From: Promethearchaeota archaeon
Lineage (GTDB): Archaea > Asgardarchaeota > Lokiarchaeia > Sigyniarchaeales > SOKP01
Length of the DNA: 27,843 nucleotides
Reading direction: 5' to 3'
Assembly: GCA_048940445.1 (NCBI GenBank)
Contig: JBHLON010000039.1
Span: 1 to 27,843, forward strand
The notes beneath the pieces were generated by a model. It was given only the letters and a program-made list of their open reading frames with translations. It was not told where the DNA came from and ran no database searches. Both the position numbers and the translations under genes were made by a program. Shown piece by piece: positions 1,889 to 12,216 of the stretch. Within the stretch, counting starts at the first letter, position 1; each line of letters starts with the position of its first letter.

Positions 1889-3040
1889 ATGATCTGGAAT
1901 TTAATGCAATTTGGGACTCAATTAGATCCACTTAGCCTAGTAATTCAAATATTATGGTTTGTATTGATCTTTGTTTCAATTTTCTATGGAACTCGGATTC
2001 AAGCTTGGAGGTCACAAAAAGAAATAGAGTCTGGTTTAGCTAAGCTTAAGGAATGGGATGATGAATGTAAACAACTATTACTAACTAATGTCAAGAAGTA
2101 TGCAGATAAAAAAGAAACTGACAAAGACTTAATGCTGAAAATTGAAGATTTTTTAACCTTTATCGCAATTACTCCAGTTTCGCTTGATCCATTTGGAATT
2201 GTTCCCAAAATTGATCATGTAATTGACGTAAGAGATAACAGATTTGAAGAAGAAGTAAGTACATTAGCACCAAATGTAATAAAGGGCTCTGCCGATTCTC
2301 AAAACATGGAAAATTTGTTTGAAGCCGTAATGGCTGTGGATTATGTTTACCGCTTAGTCAAACACTTTCTAATTTTAGGGAAAAAGACCAAATCTTATAT
2401 TCTATTGGTACAGATTTCAATGCAAATGAACTTAATCACAGCAATGGCAAAATCTTATTATCATGCTGCTAAAGCTTTCTCAGAGGGAAGCCCTATAGGA
2501 GACGCTCTAGGACCTCTTGTGGCAGGTAATTTTGTTAGAAATATCACAGAAAGAGATGATGTTCAGGCAGAAGAAATTGCAAAAGATACAATAGTACAAG
2601 AGATTAACTTTGAAGATAGACTTGTTTACGTTGTTCGAGCAAAAGGACCAGGTGGGACTGTGGGAAAACCAGGAACGGCTATAAAAAAAATTGTCGAAGA
2701 ACATGGAGATAATATCTCTAGAATCATTATGATTGATGCAGGATTAAAACTTTCTGGAGATAAGACAGGTTCAATTGTTGTTGGTGTAGGCGCTGCAATT
2801 GGAGGGATTGGTGTAGAAAAGTATTATATTGAAGACTCATCAACAAAAAAAGCAATTCCTATTGACGCTTTAGTATGTAGAGAATCATTAGAAGATGCAA
2901 TTACAACAATGCGAAGAAGTATTACTCAAAGTGTTCCAAACTTAGTGGAAAAGGTTAAAATGGCAATAAGAAAACGTACTGAGAAAGGGACAAAAGTCAT
3001 TGTGGCAGGTATTGGAAATACAATAGGTATAGGAGTCTAA
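1889..3040 (+). CDS. DUF1512-family archaeal membrane-anchored protein
   Basis: N-terminal TM; PVSLDPFGIV, PIGDALGPLVA, RAKGPGGTVGKPG, IIMIDAGLKL, GVGAAIGGIGVEK and the terminal GIGNTIGIG are motifs I recognise from DUF1512. Confidence 0.8.
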   Translation: MIWNLMQFGTQLDPLSLVIQILWFVLIFVSIFYGTRIQAWRSQKEIESGLAKLKEWDDECKQLLLTNVKKYADKKETDKDLMLKIEDFLTFIAITPVSLDPFGIVPKIDHVIDVRDNRFEEEVSTLAPNVIKGSADSQNMENLFEAVMAVDYVYRLVKHFLILGKKTKSYILLVQISMQMNLITAMAKSYYHAAKAFSEGSPIGDALGPLVAGNFVRNITERDDVQAEEIAKDTIVQEINFEDRLVYVVRAKGPGGTVGKPGTAIKKIVEEHGDNISRIIMIDAGLKLSGDKTGSIVVGVGAAIGGIGVEKYYIEDSSTKKAIPIDALVCRESLEDAITTMRRSITQSVPNLVEKVKMAIRKRTEKGTKVIVAGIGNTIGIGV

Positions 3041-3168
3041 TAACTTATTTACATATAAATTACAAAACTGTAATAATATTTTCTAAACCTATATTTGACA
3101 AAATTAATTTAAAATCAAAGCTAATATCAATCATAAATCTAAAAAATTTCAAATAAAGAGTGATAATA

Positions 3169-3627
3169 ATGAAAGTATTTTCGGAAGAATGGTCAGATGC
3201 TTATGTGAAAGCTCTTAACAATAATCCTAACTATAGAGCTGCAGCTTCTTGGTGGGAAGGAGATTTTATCTTTATTGTTGAACCAAGCGGAAATTTAGAT
3301 CACGAAATTAAAATGTTTATAGGATTGTATAAAGGAGATTGCACAGGAGCGAAAGTTTTTGCTCCAGGTGAAGAATATGACGTTCTACCACCTAATTCCC
3401 CTCCCAGACCATTAAAAGAAGGTGAAAAAGTTGGTGCAGAATTTGTATTTTCAGGACCTTATGATAATTGGGTAAAGGTTCTAAAGAAAGAACTAGATCC
3501 TATACAAGGGCTAATGGCAGGGAAGTTTAAGCTAGTTGGGAACATGGCAAAAGTTATGCGTGCTACAAAGGCAGCACAAGAAATGGTTGTAGCCACTACA
3601 ATGGTTGAAGGCACGGAATTTTATTAA
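3169..3627 (+). CDS. SCP2 sterol/lipid-binding domain protein
   Basis: FSEEW...LNNNPNY...WEGDF; FVFSGPYDNWVKVLKKELDPIQGLMAGKFKLVGNM matches the SCP2 C-terminal signature. The ATG at 3169 (after an SD-like GAGTGAT) is preferred over the GTG at 3160. Confidence 0.85.
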   Translation: MKVFSEEWSDAYVKALNNNPNYRAAASWWEGDFIFIVEPSGNLDHEIKMFIGLYKGDCTGAKVFAPGEEYDVLPPNSPPRPLKEGEKVGAEFVFSGPYDNWVKVLKKELDPIQGLMAGKFKLVGNMAKVMRATKAAQEMVVATTMVEGTEFY

Positions 3628-3915
3628 CACAAAATTTTCTCTTTTTTATTTTATTGGTGCTATTAGAGATTTATTTTTAATTTCATTTGGGATTATCTCC
3701 AAAACACAAAGTTAAACTGGTGTATTTAAGTTCTTTTAGTTAATTTAGATACTTGTTATTTAATTCATTTTACTAAACCTTTGGAATTATAGGAAGAATT
3801 CAGTATAATCTCGCATAATGTAAACAATTGATAATAATTGGACTATAGTAATATTTAATACCCTATTCATTTTCTATAATTATTAACCAATTTAACTAAA
3901 AATATGTGATAAAAA

Positions 3916-4920
3916 ATGGGCTTATCCACAAAAAAATATTATGTAAAAGATTTAATCATAGACGATGAATATGGAACTATAAGCAGTAAAGCAACCATTA
4001 ATGAAGCCGCAAAAAAGATGAAAGAATTAGGCATACCTGACTTAGTTGTCGTAGAAGAAGGTACTGAAAAAGTTTTGGGAATAGTTGGCGACTTCGATAT
4101 CGTTCAAGATGTCATAGCGGAAGGATTAGACCCAAACACCTCAAACGTGATTAAAGCAATGTATAAAATCCCACCAGTGACATTAGACACTCCTGTAACA
4201 GAAGCGTTTACAAGAATGAGAGACTTACAAGCGAATGTCGTACCTGTTGTAGAGAATGACAAATTACTAGGCGTTTGTTCAATTCATGACACTTGGAGTT
4301 ATATTCCTGATGAGAACGTCGATGAAATTGGTCTTATACAAGTTAACAATACACGGATGGCAGAATTTCTATTTACAACCGTGTTTTCAATTTTAGCAGT
4401 TCTAATTGGAATAATCTTACCTTTTGGGGGTGCTTATGGACTTTTTGCAGCAAATCAGATAAATTTATCTAGTTTATTTGGCATAGTATTTCTTTTTAAT
4501 GGAAGAGTAACGTTTCAATTGTTCGAAGCAAAGGGCATTAATTATTTTGTCTCATATGGTGATATATCTGCTTTAAATGGACCGATTTGGATATCAATAA
4601 TGGTATTTAGTGTTTTAATTATAATTTTTGGGGTAATAAGTTTAATCTCTCTAATTTATGTTAGCTATACGGGAAAAAGGTATAATCTTACGGAACTTTT
4701 ATTACGAAATGTTTTTCCAATACTTCTCATCGTTTTTATGGTGATTGAATGGATCCTATTTGGAAGTGCATTTGCGCTCTCTGGATTATCAACTGTTGTT
4801 GCCCCCGATGCTTTAGGGTTATCTATGTCAATAATTTCAATGGTTCTGATAATCGCAGCAATAAACCATGACCGATTTTTCAGACAAAAAGGAACATCGA
4901 GAAATAGAGAGGTGAAATAA
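3916..4920 (+). CDS. CBS-domain pair fused to a C-terminal four-TM membrane domain
   Basis: Two CBS repeats (ATINEAAKKMKELGIPDLVVVEE...VLGIVGDFDI; DTPVTEAFTRMRDLQANVVPVVENDKLLGVCSIHD) followed by four hydrophobic helices. Confidence 0.8.
   Translation: MGLSTKKYYVKDLIIDDEYGTISSKATINEAAKKMKELGIPDLVVVEEGTEKVLGIVGDFDIVQDVIAEGLDPNTSNVIKAMYKIPPVTLDTPVTEAFTRMRDLQANVVPVVENDKLLGVCSIHDTWSYIPDENVDEIGLIQVNNTRMAEFLFTTVFSILAVLIGIILPFGGAYGLFAANQINLSSLFGIVFLFNGRVTFQLFEAKGINYFVSYGDISALNGPIWISIMVFSVLIIIFGVISLISLIYVSYTGKRYNLTELLLRNVFPILLIVFMVIEWILFGSAFALSGLSTVVAPDALGLSMSIISMVLIIAAINHDRFFRQKGTSRNREVK
4909..4915 (+). promoter_or_regulatory. Shine-Dalgarno GAGGTGA for the 4925 gene, embedded in the end of the CBS gene
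   Basis: GAGGTGA ends 9 nt before ATG 4925; the intergenic gap is only 4 nt. Confidence 0.7.
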
Positions 4921-4924
4921 GTAA

Positions 4925-5032
4925 ATGCCTCGAGGTGGTGGATCTAGAGGTGGCGGATTCAGAGGCGGCGGTGGTTTCAGAGGCGGCGGCTTTGGTGGAG
5001 GTGGATTTCGAGGTGGCGGTTTTAGAGGAGGT
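4925..5032 (+). repeat. GC-rich coding repeat for the (F)RGGG tract
   Basis: Encodes MPRGGGSRGGGFRGGGGFRGGGFGGGGFRGGGFRGG with mixed Gly/Arg/Phe codons; much higher GC than the flanks. Confidence 0.85.
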
Positions 5033-6421
5033 CCTGCTAGTTTCCGTACTGGTGGTTATCGATCAAATGGTGTACCTTTTGGCAGGACCGGAGCATCACG
5101 AATAGTTTCACGTACTCCACGTGGACCTTATAGGCATTCATACTATCGTCCCTATAGAGGTTACTATTGGTGGGGATATAGACCATGGTACTGGCGTTGG
5201 TGGTATTCTCCATGGTGGTCTGGATATTGGTATAGACCTTGGTACTATAGCCCTGCGTATGTAGGCGGTGGAATTTTTTTCGTTATTATACTTGGATTAA
5301 TTATTCTACCTTTTCTTGGTGTAGGATTATGGTTTCCTTTCACAAGTGCTGACTCCACTGGAACCGTGAACTATCGATCTACTGAGACTCTTTATTATAA
5401 TGAATACTGGTATGAACATGAATATACAAATATAGGTAATACCATTACCTATTCAGTTGACTCACGCGACAGTTTAATAACATTTGCGATTTGGGATCAA
5501 CCCTTTGATAATTTACCTACTATTAATATACCAGGTAGTAATCCTCTTGATTCATTTAACCTGACCTATAATGAATATCAGTATTTTTGGCTTTTCTTAA
5601 ACCCAGATTCATCTATTACTTATAATTTTGATGCAAATAGTTCTGTTGATTTCTTTATAGCAGACGGTTATCAACTTTACCAATGGAATCAAGGAGGAAG
5701 TCCCAGTTTTTACAATGAAAGTTTAAATACCCTGGGTGAAACTGGATCTTTACAAATTTCTGAGGCAAATGATTACTATTTAGTATGGTATAATGATCTT
5801 TCTGGAACTGTTAACGTTAATTATACTGTAAGTTATTATGCTGCAAATGTTATTGATTTTTCTGGAGCTTATGCAGTCCATGAAGCTGTTTATATTACAA
5901 ATGGAATGTTTACCGTTCCTAATTCAGGTGATTGGTACTTCTTCATATATTTTGATCCTTTTTATTCACCGAATGTATCAACTACAATTACTTTTGACGT
6001 TACATATGATACAGGAGTGACCTATGCTGAAAGATGGACCGATATTTCATGGGTGTTAATTATAATATTAGTAATAATTGTAATTATCGTTATTGTAGCT
6101 TTCGCAGCAAGAAGAGGCCAAAAAACTCAAAGCCTAAAAGCAAAGAAGGAAGAAAAACCAGAAACTGCTAAGATAGCCAAGGAGACTAAAGAAACCAAGG
6201 AGGTTGCTGAGGTTGAGCTTGGAAATTGTCCTCGTTGTGGTTTCAGTGTCAGAAAAGACGCAAATTTTTGTCCGAAATGCGGTGCCAAGATAGAAGGTAG
6301 AAGTATTGGGACCTCAGAAATAATAACTCCTGCTGAAGCTAAAGTATGTTCCTTCTGCGGAAGTAAGCTCTCAGAAAAAGATAAATTCTGTATCTGGTGC
6401 GGAACACCCATTGAAAAATAA
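4925..6421 (+). CDS. Two-pass membrane protein: RGG/Tyr-Trp-rich N-terminus, duplicated extracellular beta-domain, C-terminal double zinc ribbons
   Basis: Six RGG in aa 3-36; Y/W/R/P-rich aa 68-112; TM about aa 117-139; about 230-aa domain with 5 N-x-S/T sequons; TM about aa 374-395; CPRC/CPKC and CSFC/CIWC zinc ribbons. Confidence 0.85.
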   Translation: MPRGGGSRGGGFRGGGGFRGGGFGGGGFRGGGFRGGPASFRTGGYRSNGVPFGRTGASRIVSRTPRGPYRHSYYRPYRGYYWWGYRPWYWRWWYSPWWSGYWYRPWYYSPAYVGGGIFFVIILGLIILPFLGVGLWFPFTSADSTGTVNYRSTETLYYNEYWYEHEYTNIGNTITYSVDSRDSLITFAIWDQPFDNLPTINIPGSNPLDSFNLTYNEYQYFWLFLNPDSSITYNFDANSSVDFFIADGYQLYQWNQGGSPSFYNESLNTLGETGSLQISEANDYYLVWYNDLSGTVNVNYTVSYYAANVIDFSGAYAVHEAVYITNGMFTVPNSGDWYFFIYFDPFYSPNVSTTITFDVTYDTGVTYAERWTDISWVLIIILVIIVIIVIVAFAARRGQKTQSLKAKKEEKPETAKIAKETKETKEVAEVELGNCPRCGFSVRKDANFCPKCGAKIEGRSIGTSEIITPAEAKVCSFCGSKLSEKDKFCIWCGTPIEK

Positions 6422-6510
6422 CTAACATTAGTAAAATTATAATAATTTTCAAACTTTTTTTTCTCATATTTGGAATCATAAGAAAATGAGTTAATTCTAG
6501 GAACATTAAG

Positions 6511-7209
6511 ATGCTGTTAAAATTTCTAATATTATATTTACGTGCTAAATTTGAGAAGGTTGTAGCGAATAGCATTTTAATGATAATTTTATTCTTTTGG
6601 TTTGTTCCAATTGAAATTTTGATTAATTTGAAATGGTATTTATATCTTTTATTTTTTCTATCATTCCTATTTATCCTATATTTGCTAATTTTAAGACGAA
6701 TTAAAAGAACTTGTATAATACTGGATTCAAAATTAAATCGTGATAATTTTTCAGAACAAATGGGCATTGAACCTTTAAATAATGGAAAATTAATGAAATC
6801 TTATAGAAGATGGTTGATAGACGATGCAAAAAACCATCACATAGATATTAATTTTAAGTCAGAAACTAAGTACTATGGCACAACGTGCTGTTATTATTGT
6901 TGTTATTGTACTGTTCCATTATTGTTAGTCTTTGGAACATTTTCGCTTGTCTATTCACCACAATTTGCACGATGGGTAATTTCACCATCCGTAATTTTCT
7001 TAGCTATCTTAATTTTTTTTCTCATTGAAAGATCATCCAATAAGGAAATCTATAAAAAATTAGATTCTGAAATGAAACGAATATTATTTGAAGAAGAGAC
7101 ATCTTATAAGCCTTTAAAAAAAAGAAAAATGACATTTAAATATAAAGCATGGTTGTTGGAAAATCAGAAGAAGGAAGATTCCTTTTTCACTGATATGTAT
7201 AAAAAGTGA
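6511..7209 (+). CDS. Hypothetical membrane protein with a two-fold internal repeat and a Cys-rich motif (start uncertain; alternative ATG 6580)
   Basis: Two (TM-TM-helical) units sharing LDS-xxx-R-xx-F-x-E-xxxxx-PL-xxx-K-xxxx-Y-xx-WL; CCYYCCYC before the third TM. Confidence 0.65.
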   Translation: MLLKFLILYLRAKFEKVVANSILMIILFFWFVPIEILINLKWYLYLLFFLSFLFILYLLILRRIKRTCIILDSKLNRDNFSEQMGIEPLNNGKLMKSYRRWLIDDAKNHHIDINFKSETKYYGTTCCYYCCYCTVPLLLVFGTFSLVYSPQFARWVISPSVIFLAILIFFLIERSSNKEIYKKLDSEMKRILFEEETSYKPLKKRKMTFKYKAWLLENQKKEDSFFTDMYKK

Positions 7210-7316
7210 TTTCTCAGTGAATTTTTTATCAAATTATTATTTAGTTACCTAATTTTGAATAGATTTATTAGATCAATTTAATTGAGTAATTTATAATAGC
7301 TTTATTATTAGCATTT

Positions 7317-8123
7317 ATGTCTGCTTATGACCAAGATTTTTCTGATGTAGCCCAAGATGCCAAAGTCTTTTTCTTTGATCTAGATGGTACTATTTACTTA
7401 GGTGAAAAGCTGTTTGAGGGCGTTATTGACCTAATAAGATTATTAGAGAAAAAGAATAAATTCTTTTTTTTTCTGTCCAATAATTCCAGTAAATCAACTT
7501 CAGATTATCTATTGAAATTAAATAATATGAACTTGAATATAACTCGAGAAAACATTATTTTATCACAGCATCCAACAATCGATTATCTAAAAAAAAATAA
7601 TTTTGAGAAGATTTTCTTATTAGGGACTGATTCTCTTAAATATGAATTTTTAAGTGAAGGTTTTATCTTAACGGAAAAGGATCCTGAGATATTAGTGTTA
7701 GCTTTTGATCAAGAATTAACTTACGAGCGATTAGTTCGCGCTTCCTATCTCTTACAAAATGATATTCCTTATATAGCAACACATTTAGACGATAAATGTC
7801 CAACTCAAGAAGGGTATATTCCTGATGCAGGAGGGATTGCCGCATTATTATTTAAAGCTACTGGTAGAATGCCGAGAGTTTTTGGAAAACCAAACAAGGA
7901 AATGCTTTTATTTAAGCTCCAAGAGTTACAAATTCATCCTAAGGATGCAATTATGTTTGGAGATAGATTATATACTGATATCAAAATGGGAATAGAAGCA
8001 GGAGTAGTCACTTGTGGTGTATTATCTGGAGAAATCTCTCTTGAAATGATAGAGGAGAATAGTGATTATAAACCAGATTTTGTAATTAATGGAATCTGGG
8101 AACTATTTGAAATATTGAAATAA
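7317..8123 (+). CDS. HAD-superfamily subfamily IIA (NagD-like) phosphatase
   Basis: FDLDGTIY (motif I), LSNNS (II), GKP (III), GDRLYTDI (IV). Confidence 0.92.
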   Translation: MSAYDQDFSDVAQDAKVFFFDLDGTIYLGEKLFEGVIDLIRLLEKKNKFFFFLSNNSSKSTSDYLLKLNNMNLNITRENIILSQHPTIDYLKKNNFEKIFLLGTDSLKYEFLSEGFILTEKDPEILVLAFDQELTYERLVRASYLLQNDIPYIATHLDDKCPTQEGYIPDAGGIAALLFKATGRMPRVFGKPNKEMLLFKLQELQIHPKDAIMFGDRLYTDIKMGIEAGVVTCGVLSGEISLEMIEENSDYKPDFVINGIWELFEILK

Positions 8124-8290
8124 AAGGATTCATATATTTTAAATAAAATTCTATAAAGAAAAATTTTATTTCAGAATATAGATTTATAAACTTAAGAGTA
8201 TTAAAGTTCAAGTCACTTGAACGAAAATGATTTGGTTTTTATCTTTTTAATCATATGAATTGAGTAATACTATGAAATTGGAAAAATAAA

Positions 8291-10996
8291 ATGACCGCTA
8301 CTGAAACTAACAAATATGTGTATAACTTTAGTGAAGGAAAGAAAGAGTTAAAAAACTTATTGGGCGGAAAAGGAGCAAATCTTGGGGAAATGACTAATTT
8401 AGGATTAAATATTCCACCAGGATTTACAATTACAACAGAAGCTTGCTTGTTATACTTTCAAAATCCTGATAAAATAATGGCTAAAATTGAACCATTAGTA
8501 ATTGAACATCTTAAAGAATTAGAAAACAAAACAGGGAAAAAGTTTGGTGATACAAGAAATCCCCTCCTTGTTAGTGTGCGAAGTGGAGCTCCACAGTCGA
8601 TGCCTGGAATGATGGATACAGTTTTAAATCTGGGGTTAAATGACCAATCTGTCAAAGGGATGGCAGAACAAACGGATAATCCTAGATTTGCCTATGATTC
8701 ATATCGTAGATTTATCCAGATGTTCGGAGATGTAGTAATGGGATTAGGAGATGAGAAATTTGAGAGAATTCTTGATAAATATAAAATAAATATCTCCAGA
8801 AAAGCTCAAGATACTGATTTAACAGTAAAAGATTTACAGAAAATAATCGCAGATTATAAAGCATTATATGAGAAAGAAATTGGTTCTCCCTTCCCCCAAG
8901 ACCCATATAAACAACTTTTTCTTGCGATTGATGCTGTTTTTAAATCATGGAATAATAAACGGGCTTTAATTTATAGAAAGCTTAATGATATTCCCGATTA
9001 TGGGACTGCAGTAAATATTCAAACCATGGTTTTTGGAAATAAAGGATGGGATTCTGCAACTGGAGTAGCCTTTACAAGGGATCCCTCTACGGGAGAAAAC
9101 ATAAAGTTTGGAGAATATTTATCAAATGCCCAAGGAGAGGATGTGGTTGCTGGGATACGTACTCCGAAAAAACTTGAAGAAATGAAAAAAGAGTTCCCAA
9201 AAATTCATAAAGAGTTATTAAACACGATGGAAAAACTTGAGAATCATTATAGGGACATGCAAGATATAGAATTTACCATCGAAAATGGAACTTTGTTCAT
9301 ACTTCAAACAAGGAATGGAAAGCGTACTCCTTCAGCAGCAGTTAAAATAGCTGTTGATATGGTCAAAGAAGGTTTAATTTCCAAAGAAGAAGCAATAATG
9401 AGTCTGGATCCTAACAAAATTTCAAAATTATTATTTAAAAGTATTGATGATCATGCTGTTATCCATGTTTATGCTACTGGTATTAATGCATCTCCTGGAG
9501 CTGTCTCAGGTAAAGCAATCTTTGACGCTGATAAAGCAGAAGCAATGGCAAATGCTGGAGAAAAAGAAATTATTTTAGTTAGACCTCAAACTAAACCTGA
9601 AGATGTACATGGATTATTCGCCTCAAACGGTGTACTTACACAATTTGGAGGAAAAACATCCCATGCAGCTGTTGTAGCAAGGGGGATGGGCAAACCAGCA
9701 GTAGTGGGTGCTCAAGATATTGAGATTGATGAAGAGAAAAGAGAATTCAAGGTTGGGGAGACTATTGTCAAAGAGGGGGATTATATAACTATTGATGGTA
9801 CAACTGGTCGCGTAATAGGGGGGAAAGTTCCATTAATAGAGCCAGAAATAAAAGGAGAATTTTTAGAATTACTAAATATGGCAGATAAAATTAGGACTCT
9901 TGGAATACGAGCAAATGCAGATACTCCTATAGATGCTATGAAAGCTATAGAATTCGGTGCTGAAGGAATTGGATTAACTAGGACGGAACATATGTTTATG
10001 GCACAGGATAGATTGCCAGTAGTTCAGGGAATGATTTTAGCTCGAACTCAAGAAGAACGCCAAGATGCATTAAATAAGATTTTACCAATGCAAAAAGGAG
10101 ATTTTTATGAGATATTCAAAATTATGGAAGGAAAACCTGTTACAATAAGATTATTAGATCCTCCATTGCACGAATTTTTGCCTGATTTAAACATAGTACA
10201 GCAAGAATACCAAGAGTTAAAGATGACAAATGAACTATCGAAATCACTTCTTAACATTAGTCCTTTGGATGATGAAATTAAAAAGAAAAATAAAGTTATA
10301 TCTTTAATCCGTTCATTATCAGAAGAAAATCCAATGATGGGACTTAGAGGCTGTCGCTTAGGGATTGTATGGCCAGAGATAAATGAAATGCAGGTTAAAG
10401 CTATTTTTCAAGCTGCATGTGAATTAAAGCTTAAGGGAGTTGATGTGATCCCTGAAGTGATGATTCCATTAATAGGGATGCTTTCTGAATTACAATTAGT
10501 AAAATCACAGTTACTAGAGATTGCAGAAGAAACTATAAAAGAATATGGTGTAGATTTAGATTACAAATTCGGGACAATGATTGAAATTCCACGAGCTGCC
10601 TTAACTGCTGATGAAATTGCTATGGAAGCAGAATTCTTTTCATTTGGAACTAATGATTTAACCCAAATGACCTATGGATTCAGTAGGGATGATGCTGAAG
10701 GTAAATTTTTGCCTATTTACCTAAATAAGGAAATCTTAGAATCGAATCCATTTGAGATCTTAGATCAAGATGGCGTAGGAAAACTTGTGAAAATGGCCAT
10801 AGAGCTTGGGAGAAAAACGAGAAAAAATCTAAAATGTGGTATCTGTGGAGAACATGGGGGCGAACCAAAATCTATTAAATTTGCAAATTCTATTGGTATC
10901 GATTATGTTTCTTGTTCTCCATTTAGAATTCCTGTTGCTCGATTAGCTGCTGCTCAAGCTGCGATTGAACAAAAAAAGAGCAAAACAAAGAAATAA
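8291..10996 (+). CDS. ppdK: Pyruvate, phosphate dikinase
   Basis: LLGGKGANL, LLVSVRSGA-x-SMPGMMDT, GGKTSHAAVVARG (phospho-His), FSFGTNDLTQ, CGEHGG; 901 aa. Confidence 0.97.
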   Translation: MTATETNKYVYNFSEGKKELKNLLGGKGANLGEMTNLGLNIPPGFTITTEACLLYFQNPDKIMAKIEPLVIEHLKELENKTGKKFGDTRNPLLVSVRSGAPQSMPGMMDTVLNLGLNDQSVKGMAEQTDNPRFAYDSYRRFIQMFGDVVMGLGDEKFERILDKYKINISRKAQDTDLTVKDLQKIIADYKALYEKEIGSPFPQDPYKQLFLAIDAVFKSWNNKRALIYRKLNDIPDYGTAVNIQTMVFGNKGWDSATGVAFTRDPSTGENIKFGEYLSNAQGEDVVAGIRTPKKLEEMKKEFPKIHKELLNTMEKLENHYRDMQDIEFTIENGTLFILQTRNGKRTPSAAVKIAVDMVKEGLISKEEAIMSLDPNKISKLLFKSIDDHAVIHVYATGINASPGAVSGKAIFDADKAEAMANAGEKEIILVRPQTKPEDVHGLFASNGVLTQFGGKTSHAAVVARGMGKPAVVGAQDIEIDEEKREFKVGETIVKEGDYITIDGTTGRVIGGKVPLIEPEIKGEFLELLNMADKIRTLGIRANADTPIDAMKAIEFGAEGIGLTRTEHMFMAQDRLPVVQGMILARTQEERQDALNKILPMQKGDFYEIFKIMEGKPVTIRLLDPPLHEFLPDLNIVQQEYQELKMTNELSKSLLNISPLDDEIKKKNKVISLIRSLSEENPMMGLRGCRLGIVWPEINEMQVKAIFQAACELKLKGVDVIPEVMIPLIGMLSELQLVKSQLLEIAEETIKEYGVDLDYKFGTMIEIPRAALTADEIAMEAEFFSFGTNDLTQMTYGFSRDDAEGKFLPIYLNKEILESNPFEILDQDGVGKLVKMAIELGRKTRKNLKCGICGEHGGEPKSIKFANSIGIDYVSCSPFRIPVARLAAAQAAIEQKKSKTKK

Positions 10997-11094
10997 TAAA
11001 TTAATTTTTTAAAAAATTCTTATTATCCTTATAAAATTACTAGTTTCATAAAGATTATATCATAAAATTTATTTATTATTTTAAAAATAACTTA

Positions 11095-12216
11095 TTGACT
11101 GGAAAGATGACATTAACTTTAGATGAAAGGATTGCATTACTACAAGAAGTTGGTGAAGAGATAATAGATTTAGATGAACTAAGAGAGATGATCCAATGGA
11201 AAATTGATCATAACCAAGAGATTTATGCCTATGATGGTTTTGAGCCTAGTGGAAATATTCATATTGCTCAGGGTTTACTTAGGGCAATAAATGTAAATAA
11301 AATAACCAAAGCTGGAGTGCGATTTAAGTTTCTTGTTGCTGATTGGCATGCTGCAGCAAATCTGAAATTTGGTGGAGATTTAGAAGTAATTAGAAAAGTT
11401 GGGGATTTTTTTATTGAGGTTTGGAAAGCTTGTGGGATGGATTTAAGCAAAGTAGAATTTATATATGCTTCAGATCTAGTGAAGGAACCAGCCTATTGGG
11501 AATTAGTATTAAAAATTTCGATAAATTCTACTCTTAAAAGAGTGAAAAGATGTACACAAATAATGGGTAGAGAAGAATCTGAAAAGCTAACAGCCTCTCA
11601 AATTCTCTATCCCTTGATGCAAACAGCTGACATTTTTTATCTTCCAGCAGATATATGTCAATTAGGATTAGATCAAAGAAAAGTTAATATGTTAGCTAGA
11701 GAGCTTGCTCCTAAACTGAATAGACCTAAACCAGTAGCAATTCATCATCATATGTTGATGGGTTTAAATAAACCTCCAGATACTGACTTAGCCGGAATTG
11801 AAAGGGTAATAAAATTAAAAATGTCAAAATCAGATCCTGACACTGCAATCTTTATGTTAGATTCTTTTGAAGATATAAAAAGAAAAATAAATAAAGCATA
11901 TTGTCCTCCAAAAGAAATCAATGAAAACCCAATTTTAGAATATTGTAAATATATTCTTTTTGAACTGATTGATACCTTTGAAGTAGAGCGCCTTGAAAAA
12001 TATGGGGGAAATATAGTTTACACTTCATATAAAGAATTGGTAAATGACTATAAAACTGATAAGTTAAATCCTGCTGATTTAAAACCCGCTGTAATTAAAT
12101 ATCTAGATCAACTACTAGACCCTATAAGAAAGCACTTTAAACGCAATAAAGTTGCGAAACAGTTATATCTTTTTGTCCAAGAAGCGGATGAAAAAGATAA
12201 AAAAAGGAAATCATAA
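11095..12216 (+). CDS. tyrS: Tyrosine--tRNA ligase, archaeal/eukaryotic type (start TTG 11095 or ATG 11107)
   Basis: YDGFEPSG-x-HIAQ (HIGH variant), YPLMQ-x-AD, QLGLDQRKVNMLARE, KMSKS. Confidence 0.96.
   Translation: MTGKMTLTLDERIALLQEVGEEIIDLDELREMIQWKIDHNQEIYAYDGFEPSGNIHIAQGLLRAINVNKITKAGVRFKFLVADWHAAANLKFGGDLEVIRKVGDFFIEVWKACGMDLSKVEFIYASDLVKEPAYWELVLKISINSTLKRVKRCTQIMGREESEKLTASQILYPLMQTADIFYLPADICQLGLDQRKVNMLARELAPKLNRPKPVAIHHHMLMGLNKPPDTDLAGIERVIKLKMSKSDPDTAIFMLDSFEDIKRKINKAYCPPKEINENPILEYCKYILFELIDTFEVERLEKYGGNIVYTSYKELVNDYKTDKLNPADLKPAVIKYLDQLLDPIRKHFKRNKVAKQLYLFVQEADEKDKKRKS

Follow-up and report, generated by a model that had tools for sequence, protein, structure and literature searches.

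An Asgard membrane protein family with an inner ectodomain homologous to the luminal part of eukaryotic APD1-4 RING ligases

The window analysed here is a stretch of 27,843 nucleotides from the assembly of a Promethearchaeota archaeon (GCA_048940445.1, contig JBHLON010000039.1). It carries, on the forward strand, a gene for a two-pass membrane protein (P0001) that lies directly downstream of a gene for a CBS domain containing membrane protein. The span on which a preliminary description of this DNA had focused, 5342-6043, corresponds to residues 140-373 of the open reading frame 4925-6421 (+). The features of the two genes are as follows.

3916..4920, + strand: upstream partner, a 334-residue protein in which a CBS pair at the N-terminus precedes a C-terminal membrane domain of several helices (open reading frame; Pfam CBS, E 3.7e-13)
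4925..6421, + strand: P0001 gene, encoding a 498-residue two-pass membrane protein (open reading frame and translation)
4925..5104, + strand: RGG/FRGG tail, predicted to be cytoplasmic, residues 1-60, starting MPRGGGSRGGGFRGGG (sequence; conserved in the family)
5126..5260, + strand: Trp/Tyr/Arg/Pro-rich juxtamembrane tract, residues 68-112 (sequence; many W/Y/P positions invariant)
5270..5332, + strand: first transmembrane helix (TM1), residues ~116-136 (hydrophobic stretch)
5363..5494, + strand: N-terminal strand block of the putative outer sandwich, residues 147-190, holding unit A1 (AF2 strands; paired by profile alignment with the beginning of the inner domain)
5525..5854, + strand: inner GOLD-fold domain, residues 201-310, units A2 and B2, homologous to APD1-4_N and APD1-4_M
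5873..6010, + strand: C-terminal strand block of the putative outer sandwich, residues 317-362, unit B1 (AF2 strands; paired by profile alignment with the last part of the inner domain)
6044..6109, + strand: second transmembrane helix (TM2), residues ~374-395, followed by RRGQK (sequence and family alignment)
6110..6223, + strand: Lys/Glu-rich linker, predicted to be cytoplasmic, residues 396-433 (sequence; variable across the family)
6227..6400, + strand: double zinc ribbon, C435-x2-C438-x10-C449-x2-C452 and C475-x2-C478-x10-C489-x2-C492 (Pfam; all eight Cys invariant)

The ectodomain of P0001 is the beta-rich region between TM1 and TM2 (residues 137-373). The Arg-rich N-terminal side of TM1 suggests, by the positive-inside rule, that the N-terminus is cytoplasmic, and since basic residues occur at the cytoplasmic ends of both TM1 and TM2, residues 137-373 should face outward. 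The tail that follows TM2 matches the Pfam families DZR (PF12773; E 1.5e-11, 44.7 bits, above the cut-off of 27.3) and Zn_Ribbon_1 (E 4.5e-12), and a C-terminal RING is absent by Pfam scan, in agreement with the earlier reading that the protein ends in CxxC zinc ribbons rather than a RING. A RING-like resemblance of the second ribbon (zf-C3HC4_3, E 0.027, 14.7 bits, cut-off 27) was rejected as evidence of membership.

A word-seeded search retrieved 295 homologues of P0001, and all the names given by the sources are Asgard: Lokiarchaeota/Promethearchaeota, Thor-, Heimdall- and Hermodarchaeota, and Kariarchaeaceae. Identity to P0001 is 55-75% across forty full-length members, which are collinear with it in all modules; about 100 positions are invariant in their alignment, including all eight cysteines. 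Among 301 genomes sampled from Asgard, the window's phylum, this family (Loki-type below) was found in 101. The complete nested ectodomain occurs mainly in three coded families of these genomes, f1 (49/68), f2 (6/7) and f24 (19/21), and f9 gave inner-domain-sized matches only. The window's own genome (3.64 Mb, 93% complete) has a single copy of the gene.

Several relatives carry additional domains. P0127, P0139 and P0161 (~555-590 residues) extend the C-terminus beyond the two zinc ribbons by a third Cys/His module, with the pattern F-C-x6-H ... CxxC-x4-CxxC-H-x10-CxxC, and their RING-like Pfam matches are weak (zf-RING_4, E 0.0097; zf-UDP, E 0.03). Presumably they belong to f24, whose open frames span 554-594 residues. 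In P0122 (875 residues) a full nested ectodomain is fused to N-terminal TPR repeats, and in P0123 (652 residues) it is followed by a WD40 beta-propeller.

The ectodomain is built from two copies of one repeat unit in the nested order A1 (residues 155-191), A2 (212-247), B2 (274-304) and B1 (327-361). This order, and the strings quoted for the units in the preliminary description, are all present in P0001. For the repeat test, an outer profile (N block joined to C block) was compared with the inner profile by hhalign, using the 40 family members. The two align over 89 columns in nested register with a score of 31.3 (P 6.8e-5, probability 63%). Column shuffles of the outer profile (n=100) score 12.2 +/- 2.5 on average and 19.3 at most, and since none of the 100 reaches 31.3, the P-value and the shuffles together indicate that the nested repeat is more than chance.

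An AF2 model of the ectodomain, computed from the 40-sequence alignment, is all-beta (pLDDT 89.9, pTM 0.78) and has four N-terminal strands, a middle part of eight strands and one helix, and four C-terminal strands. The strands of the N block are at model residues 12-22, 26-33, 38-45 and 50-55 (pLDDT 86-92) and those of the C block at 182-187, 189-195, 200-207 and 217-227. In an exhaustive structural search, solved GOLD domains match the contiguous middle only, at model residues 66-174 (protein residues ~201-310); they cover the whole inner domain, which is thus assigned to the GOLD fold. A few sandwich modules (CorA, CBM4 and MopE) span from model residue 4, 12 or 13 to 226 or 227 with ~95-106 residues aligned, which agrees with a second sandwich built from both flanks. 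The match ranges in the predicted model therefore support well, if indirectly and not by a direct view of the coordinates, a GOLD sandwich nested in a second sandwich, and to this extent the earlier suggestion of one GOLD-type beta-sandwich inserted into another agrees with the model. The two flanking strand blocks resemble a diverged copy of the inner GOLD domain. Birnavirus VP2, a protein of nested jelly rolls that was among the Foldseek hits, was set aside (TM below 0.3, rmsd about 16), and a sequence search of the PDB with the ectodomain gave nothing meaningful (best E 0.68).

Of particular interest is the relation of this ectodomain to the APD proteins of eukaryotes. Arabidopsis ABERRANT POLLEN DEVELOPMENT 1-4 (APD1-4) contain the Pfam families APD1-4_N (PF16040) and APD1-4_M (PF16041) and a C-terminal RING (zf-C3HC4_3). 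PMC13210498, citing Luo et al. 2012, describes plant APD1-4 as transmembrane RING E3s that belong to the endomembrane system and have no known substrate. The inner unit of P0001 had been likened to the two APD domains, and in Pfam this likeness is borne out in part. APD1-4_N is the only family matched by the P0001 ectodomain (13.7-14.1 bits, E 0.04-0.05, residues 210-248), at a score below the gathering score of 27 bits, and it is matched by 32 of the 40 family ectodomains at E<=1 (best 1.7e-7). APD1-4_M has no match in P0001 and matches three of the 40 relatives (best E 0.054), and the GOLD family EMP24_GP25L (PF01105) has no match in P0001 at E<=10 or in the 40 ectodomains at E<=1.

When the family ectodomain profile was run with hmmsearch against 1.84e9 proteins (representatives), 118 hits were obtained at E<=1e-3, and the weaker ones (1e-9 to 1e-3) cover profile positions ~62-180, which correspond to the inner domain. 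In a scanned subset of 76 hits, APD1-4_N is present in 26 (best 1.2e-48) and APD1-4_M in 18 (best 2.4e-40), many of them above the Pfam cut-offs; those with a source name belong to the plant Brassica or to Amoebozoa (Balamuthia, Pellita, Cochliopodium and Planopodium). An independent plant profile was made by collecting APDs from the Brassica protein outward, all of which have a RING and both APD domains, and by cutting the luminal domain from 24 of them. In hhalign, this profile aligns with the whole family ectodomain at 87% probability (E 3.7e-6, 132 columns) and with the inner domain alone at 92.6% (E 4.6e-7). The outer flanks of the Loki-type and plant proteins do not align significantly (E 0.26, 0.089 and 0.38), so that for the outer sandwich homology to the plant flanks would rest on structure, and the outer and inner parts of the plant domain give no repeat signal against each other (E 0.66). 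In one Brassica cretica gene model, P0217 (610 residues), APD1-4_N and APD1-4_M each occur twice and a RING is absent; tandem APD genes were probably fused or truncated in its annotation.

Structural comparison points in the same direction. The nearest non-self ESM-Atlas clusters of the ectodomain model are Streptophyta APD RING proteins (TM by query 0.55-0.56). The match takes in 170-179 residues over model positions 18-222, that is, beyond the inner domain, and in one of the matched clusters 99% of the members have a RING. Single GOLD-like domains with transmembrane helices and zinc ribbons are also widespread in bacteria and other archaea in the ESM-Atlas, so the resemblance to APDs is partly generic to the fold. 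From the Pfam hits in relatives, the retrieved eukaryotic APDs, and the profile-profile and ESM-Atlas matches, we conclude that, as had been proposed, there is homology between the inner GOLD domain and the luminal APD1-4_N/M domain found in the eukaryotic APD membrane RING ligases.

A second Asgard family, the Heimdall-type, is closer still to the eukaryotic proteins. Its members P0178, P0185, P0197/P0303 and P0224/P0304 (362-384 residues) score 32-36 bits on APD1-4_N, above the Pfam cut-off, and consist of a MRRGGGSRGGGFRGGG start, a transmembrane helix, the ectodomain, a second transmembrane helix, a Pro/Gln-rich linker and one zinc ribbon. P0303 is HeimC2_37210 (OLS20438.1) of Heimdallarchaeota LC_2. 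The homologue in P0001 had been called possibly unreported, which holds for the searchable literature, where no paper linking APDs to archaea was found, but not for the databases: NCBI already names P0304 an 'E3 ubiquitin-protein ligase APD1-4 domain-containing protein'. Both OLS20438.1 and MHA2169273.1 exemplify the Heimdall-type. Full-length matches to the Heimdall-type profile were found in f16 (6/11) and in two f2 genomes, with more partial ones in f27, and one genome of f2, a sister family in the same order as the window's, carries both the Loki-type and the Heimdall-type, which suggests that the two are paralogues. In the reciprocal direction, the Heimdall-type profile reaches the window gene at E 6.2e-13.

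The amoebozoan APD-like proteins, though retrieved by the ectodomain alone, start with MGRHGGGSRGGGG, MPRHGGGSRSGG or MGKHGGG, and end in Pro/Tyr-rich tails without a RING. A Gly/Arg-rich N-terminus is thus common to the Loki-type, Heimdall-type and amoebozoan proteins, the plant proteins excepted. By hhalign, the Heimdall-type aligns with the amoebozoan set over the whole ectodomain (100%, E 8.6e-39, 193 columns), the amoebozoan with the plant set at 99.7% (E 2.8e-25, 202 columns) and the Heimdall-type with the plant set over the N flank and inner domain (98%, E 1.4e-13, 153 columns). The Loki-type aligns with the Heimdall-type over the inner domain only (98.4%, E 9.4e-15) and with the amoebozoan set over the inner domain and part of the C flank (97.9%, E 3.4e-13, 129 columns); these pairwise values are not fully independent, because the Heimdall-type and amoebozoan sets were first found via the Loki-type profile. 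Loki-type, Heimdall-type, plant and amoebozoan APD-like proteins form one superfamily. Five proteins of the Amoebozoa-type (P0175, P0238, P0195, P0246 and P0207) have His/Gly-rich N-termini with an Asgard-like start, M-[PG]-[RK]-H-G-G-G, and the Pro/Tyr-rich tails that stand in the place of the RING (e.g. APPAYNP) may be PY-type ligase-recruiting motifs. The Balamuthia gene takes up 1322 bp for 337 codons and its translation is non-collinear, and it therefore has introns; a CUE-domain gene adjoins it.

The CBS-membrane gene upstream of P0001 is also conserved. Its stop codon ends 4 nt before the ATG of the P0001 gene, and a CBS-membrane gene (50-54% identical, gaps of 1-3 nt) lies directly upstream of the family gene in three other Asgard contigs (L001-L003), where the neighbours beyond the pair are otherwise varied. 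A CBS-only homologue, 40% identical to the CBS part (E 8e-20), adjoins a Heimdall-type gene. A CBS gene thus lies beside both types, and the linkage predates the split of the two families. A complex prediction for the CBS-membrane protein and residues 105-400 of P0001 scored 0.00, a value that carries no weight either way.

P0001 shares with the eukaryotic APD1-4 proteins two transmembrane helices around an extracytoplasmic or luminal all-beta domain, an ectodomain core in the form of a GOLD sandwich whose single helix follows the fourth inner strand, homologous inner domains, and a cytoplasmic zinc-binding tail after TM2; the sequence thus upholds the common TM-ectodomain-TM-zinc-domain layout that had been noted at the outset. 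The two differ in that the tail is a double zinc ribbon in P0001 and a RING in APD1-4, in that the N-terminus has an RGG repeat in P0001 and is Ser-rich and acidic in plant APDs, and in the flanking strands, which are longer in P0001 and there resemble a second copy of the inner domain. With the Heimdall-type, P0001 shares the whole layout (RGG start, TM, ectodomain, TM, zinc ribbon) and an adjacent CBS-domain gene. The Heimdall-type, however, is shorter (365-385 residues), has a single zinc ribbon and a Pro/Gln-rich linker, and passes the APD1-4_N cut-off, and its CBS partner lies downstream and lacks a membrane domain, whereas that of P0001 lies upstream and has one. GOLD domains are also known from p24/TMED cargo receptors and Sec14-like proteins (PDB 5azw, 5gu5, 7rrm and 1o6u); p24 proteins, unlike P0001, are single-pass, have a coiled coil and a COPI/COPII-binding tail, and lack an enclosing second sandwich.

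In the preliminary description the P0001 lineage was read as possibly ancestral to the eukaryotic ectodomain, and the shared layout, the match to APD1-4_N as sole Pfam family and the plant APD clusters, which come closest among non-self structures and match both domains, are all in keeping with P0001 as a direct ancestor or orthologue of the APD ligase ectodomain. The phylogeny contradicts this. For the inner domain, an unrooted maximum likelihood tree was computed from 94 rows and only 116 columns (LG+C20+F+G4). A split with support of 99/97, in a run whose bootstrap had not settled, sets every eukaryotic and Heimdall-type row apart from the rest, and the two are intermixed inside a 33-row clade. 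The Loki-type and the divergent nested relatives lie outside this split with weak support (60/83), and P0001 is outside the clade that holds the eukaryotic APDs. An AU test, for a group named after the tree had been seen, rejects a clade of eukaryotes and Loki-type (p 0.0014, at a cost of 69 log-likelihood units). Taken with the alignment of the Heimdall-type and amoebozoan proteins over the whole ectodomain, where that of the Loki-type is essentially confined to the inner domain, and with the paralogy suggested by the f2 genome that has both types, these results make direct ancestry unlikely. P0001 is better described as a genuine archaeal relative of the eukaryotic APD luminal domain, though not the closest one, so that the earlier reading is supported in part.

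Two further readings concern the resemblance itself. P0001 might be a generic prokaryotic surface protein that has only a common GOLD/PPC-like sandwich in common with APDs: sandwiches of the GOLD, PPC and CBM-like kinds fill the fold-search lists, single-domain clusters from bacteria and other archaea reach TM 0.4-0.45, and the APD1-4_N score of P0001 is sub-threshold. Yet the hmmsearch E-values are significant across the whole library, about a third of the scanned non-family hits are Pfam-positive APDs, profile-profile probabilities reach 98% through the bridging Heimdall-type family, and features that lie outside the searched region (the Gly/Arg N-terminus, the hairpin of two TM helices and a neighbouring CBS gene) are shared as well, so that we consider this reading very improbable. 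The Asgard genes might also have been acquired from eukaryotes by horizontal transfer, as an unrooted tree with eukaryotic and Heimdall-type rows intermixed would allow; but both Asgard families have prokaryote-type zinc ribbons and occur in operon-like pairs with CBS genes in several Asgard families, the Loki-type is 55-69% identical over many genomes, and the eukaryotic genes have introns and different tails. We give transfer hardly any credence. Our analysis instead makes it probable that P0001 belongs to a family of two-TM (hairpin) membrane proteins, conserved in Asgard archaea, with a nested GOLD ectodomain and an APD-homologous inner domain, and that within the superfamily the Loki-type is a side branch (paralogue), while of the archaeal proteins the Heimdall-type stands nearest to the eukaryotic ones.

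The function of such a protein can be addressed only tentatively. P0001 may be a transmembrane adaptor or receptor, in which the outer GOLD module would bind a surface or secreted ligand, or self-associate like p24 GOLD domains, the cytoplasmic RGG tail and zinc ribbons would recruit partners, and the presumably co-transcribed CBS membrane protein would make both proteins responsive to adenine-nucleotide status. The eukaryotic form of this chassis would face the lumen, and its tail would have turned into a RING in plants and into a Pro/Tyr-rich segment in Amoebozoa. For P0001 itself, ligase activity is not among the predictions.

Relatives of the chassis occur in plants and Amoebozoa, and the amoebozoan ones keep an M-x-R-x-GGGSRGGG start. 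It is conceivable, though we would not call it likely, that the chassis (RGG, TM, GOLD in sandwich, TM, zinc finger) with its CBS protein is an Asgard invention that was inherited by the last eukaryotic common ancestor and whose tail was later swapped for one with a RING or one rich in Pro and Tyr; the Asgard protein may already deliver clients from the surface or the membrane to the archaeal ubiquitin/ESCRT machinery. If so, it would be one of the rare eukaryotic signature proteins embedded in a membrane, and its 'outside' would have become the lumen of the endomembrane system. A 2024 ESCRT survey mentions a GOLD domain for a methanogen adaptin-like protein only. In the searchable literature, no fold or function is assigned to the luminal domain of the 'orphan' APD1-4 E3 ligases, which is assigned here to the GOLD fold. 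Asgard relatives that share the full-length architecture of the eukaryotic proteins, and the Asgard family nearest to them, are identified, and provide a testable case in which an archaeal extracellular face corresponds to a eukaryotic luminal face, which bears on the origin of the endomembrane system. To the description of the window's own family, the analysis adds a nested domain duplication and a conserved CBS partner.

The surroundings of the gene pair offer some further observations. Positions 1889-12216 of the window are largely syntenic with the Lokiarchaeota contig L003, with open reading frames matched by length, order and strand; the order in L003 is DUF1512, SCP2-like, CBS-membrane, the P0001 family gene, small open reading frame, HAD hydrolase, PPDK-like (901 residues) and class-I aaRS. 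Downstream of the P0001 gene, at 6511-7209 (+), lies a candidate hydrophobic open reading frame of 232 residues without a Pfam match (best E 0.35), and the frames downstream of the family gene in related contigs are of other sizes (150 and 261 residues). On a Heimdall-type contig (L004:7172-8076), the two genes after the Heimdall-type gene encode a 146-residue CBS-only protein and a 152-residue mini-protein with an RGG start, one transmembrane helix, a Pro-rich linker and a zinc ribbon, which resembles an APD-like protein without its ectodomain.
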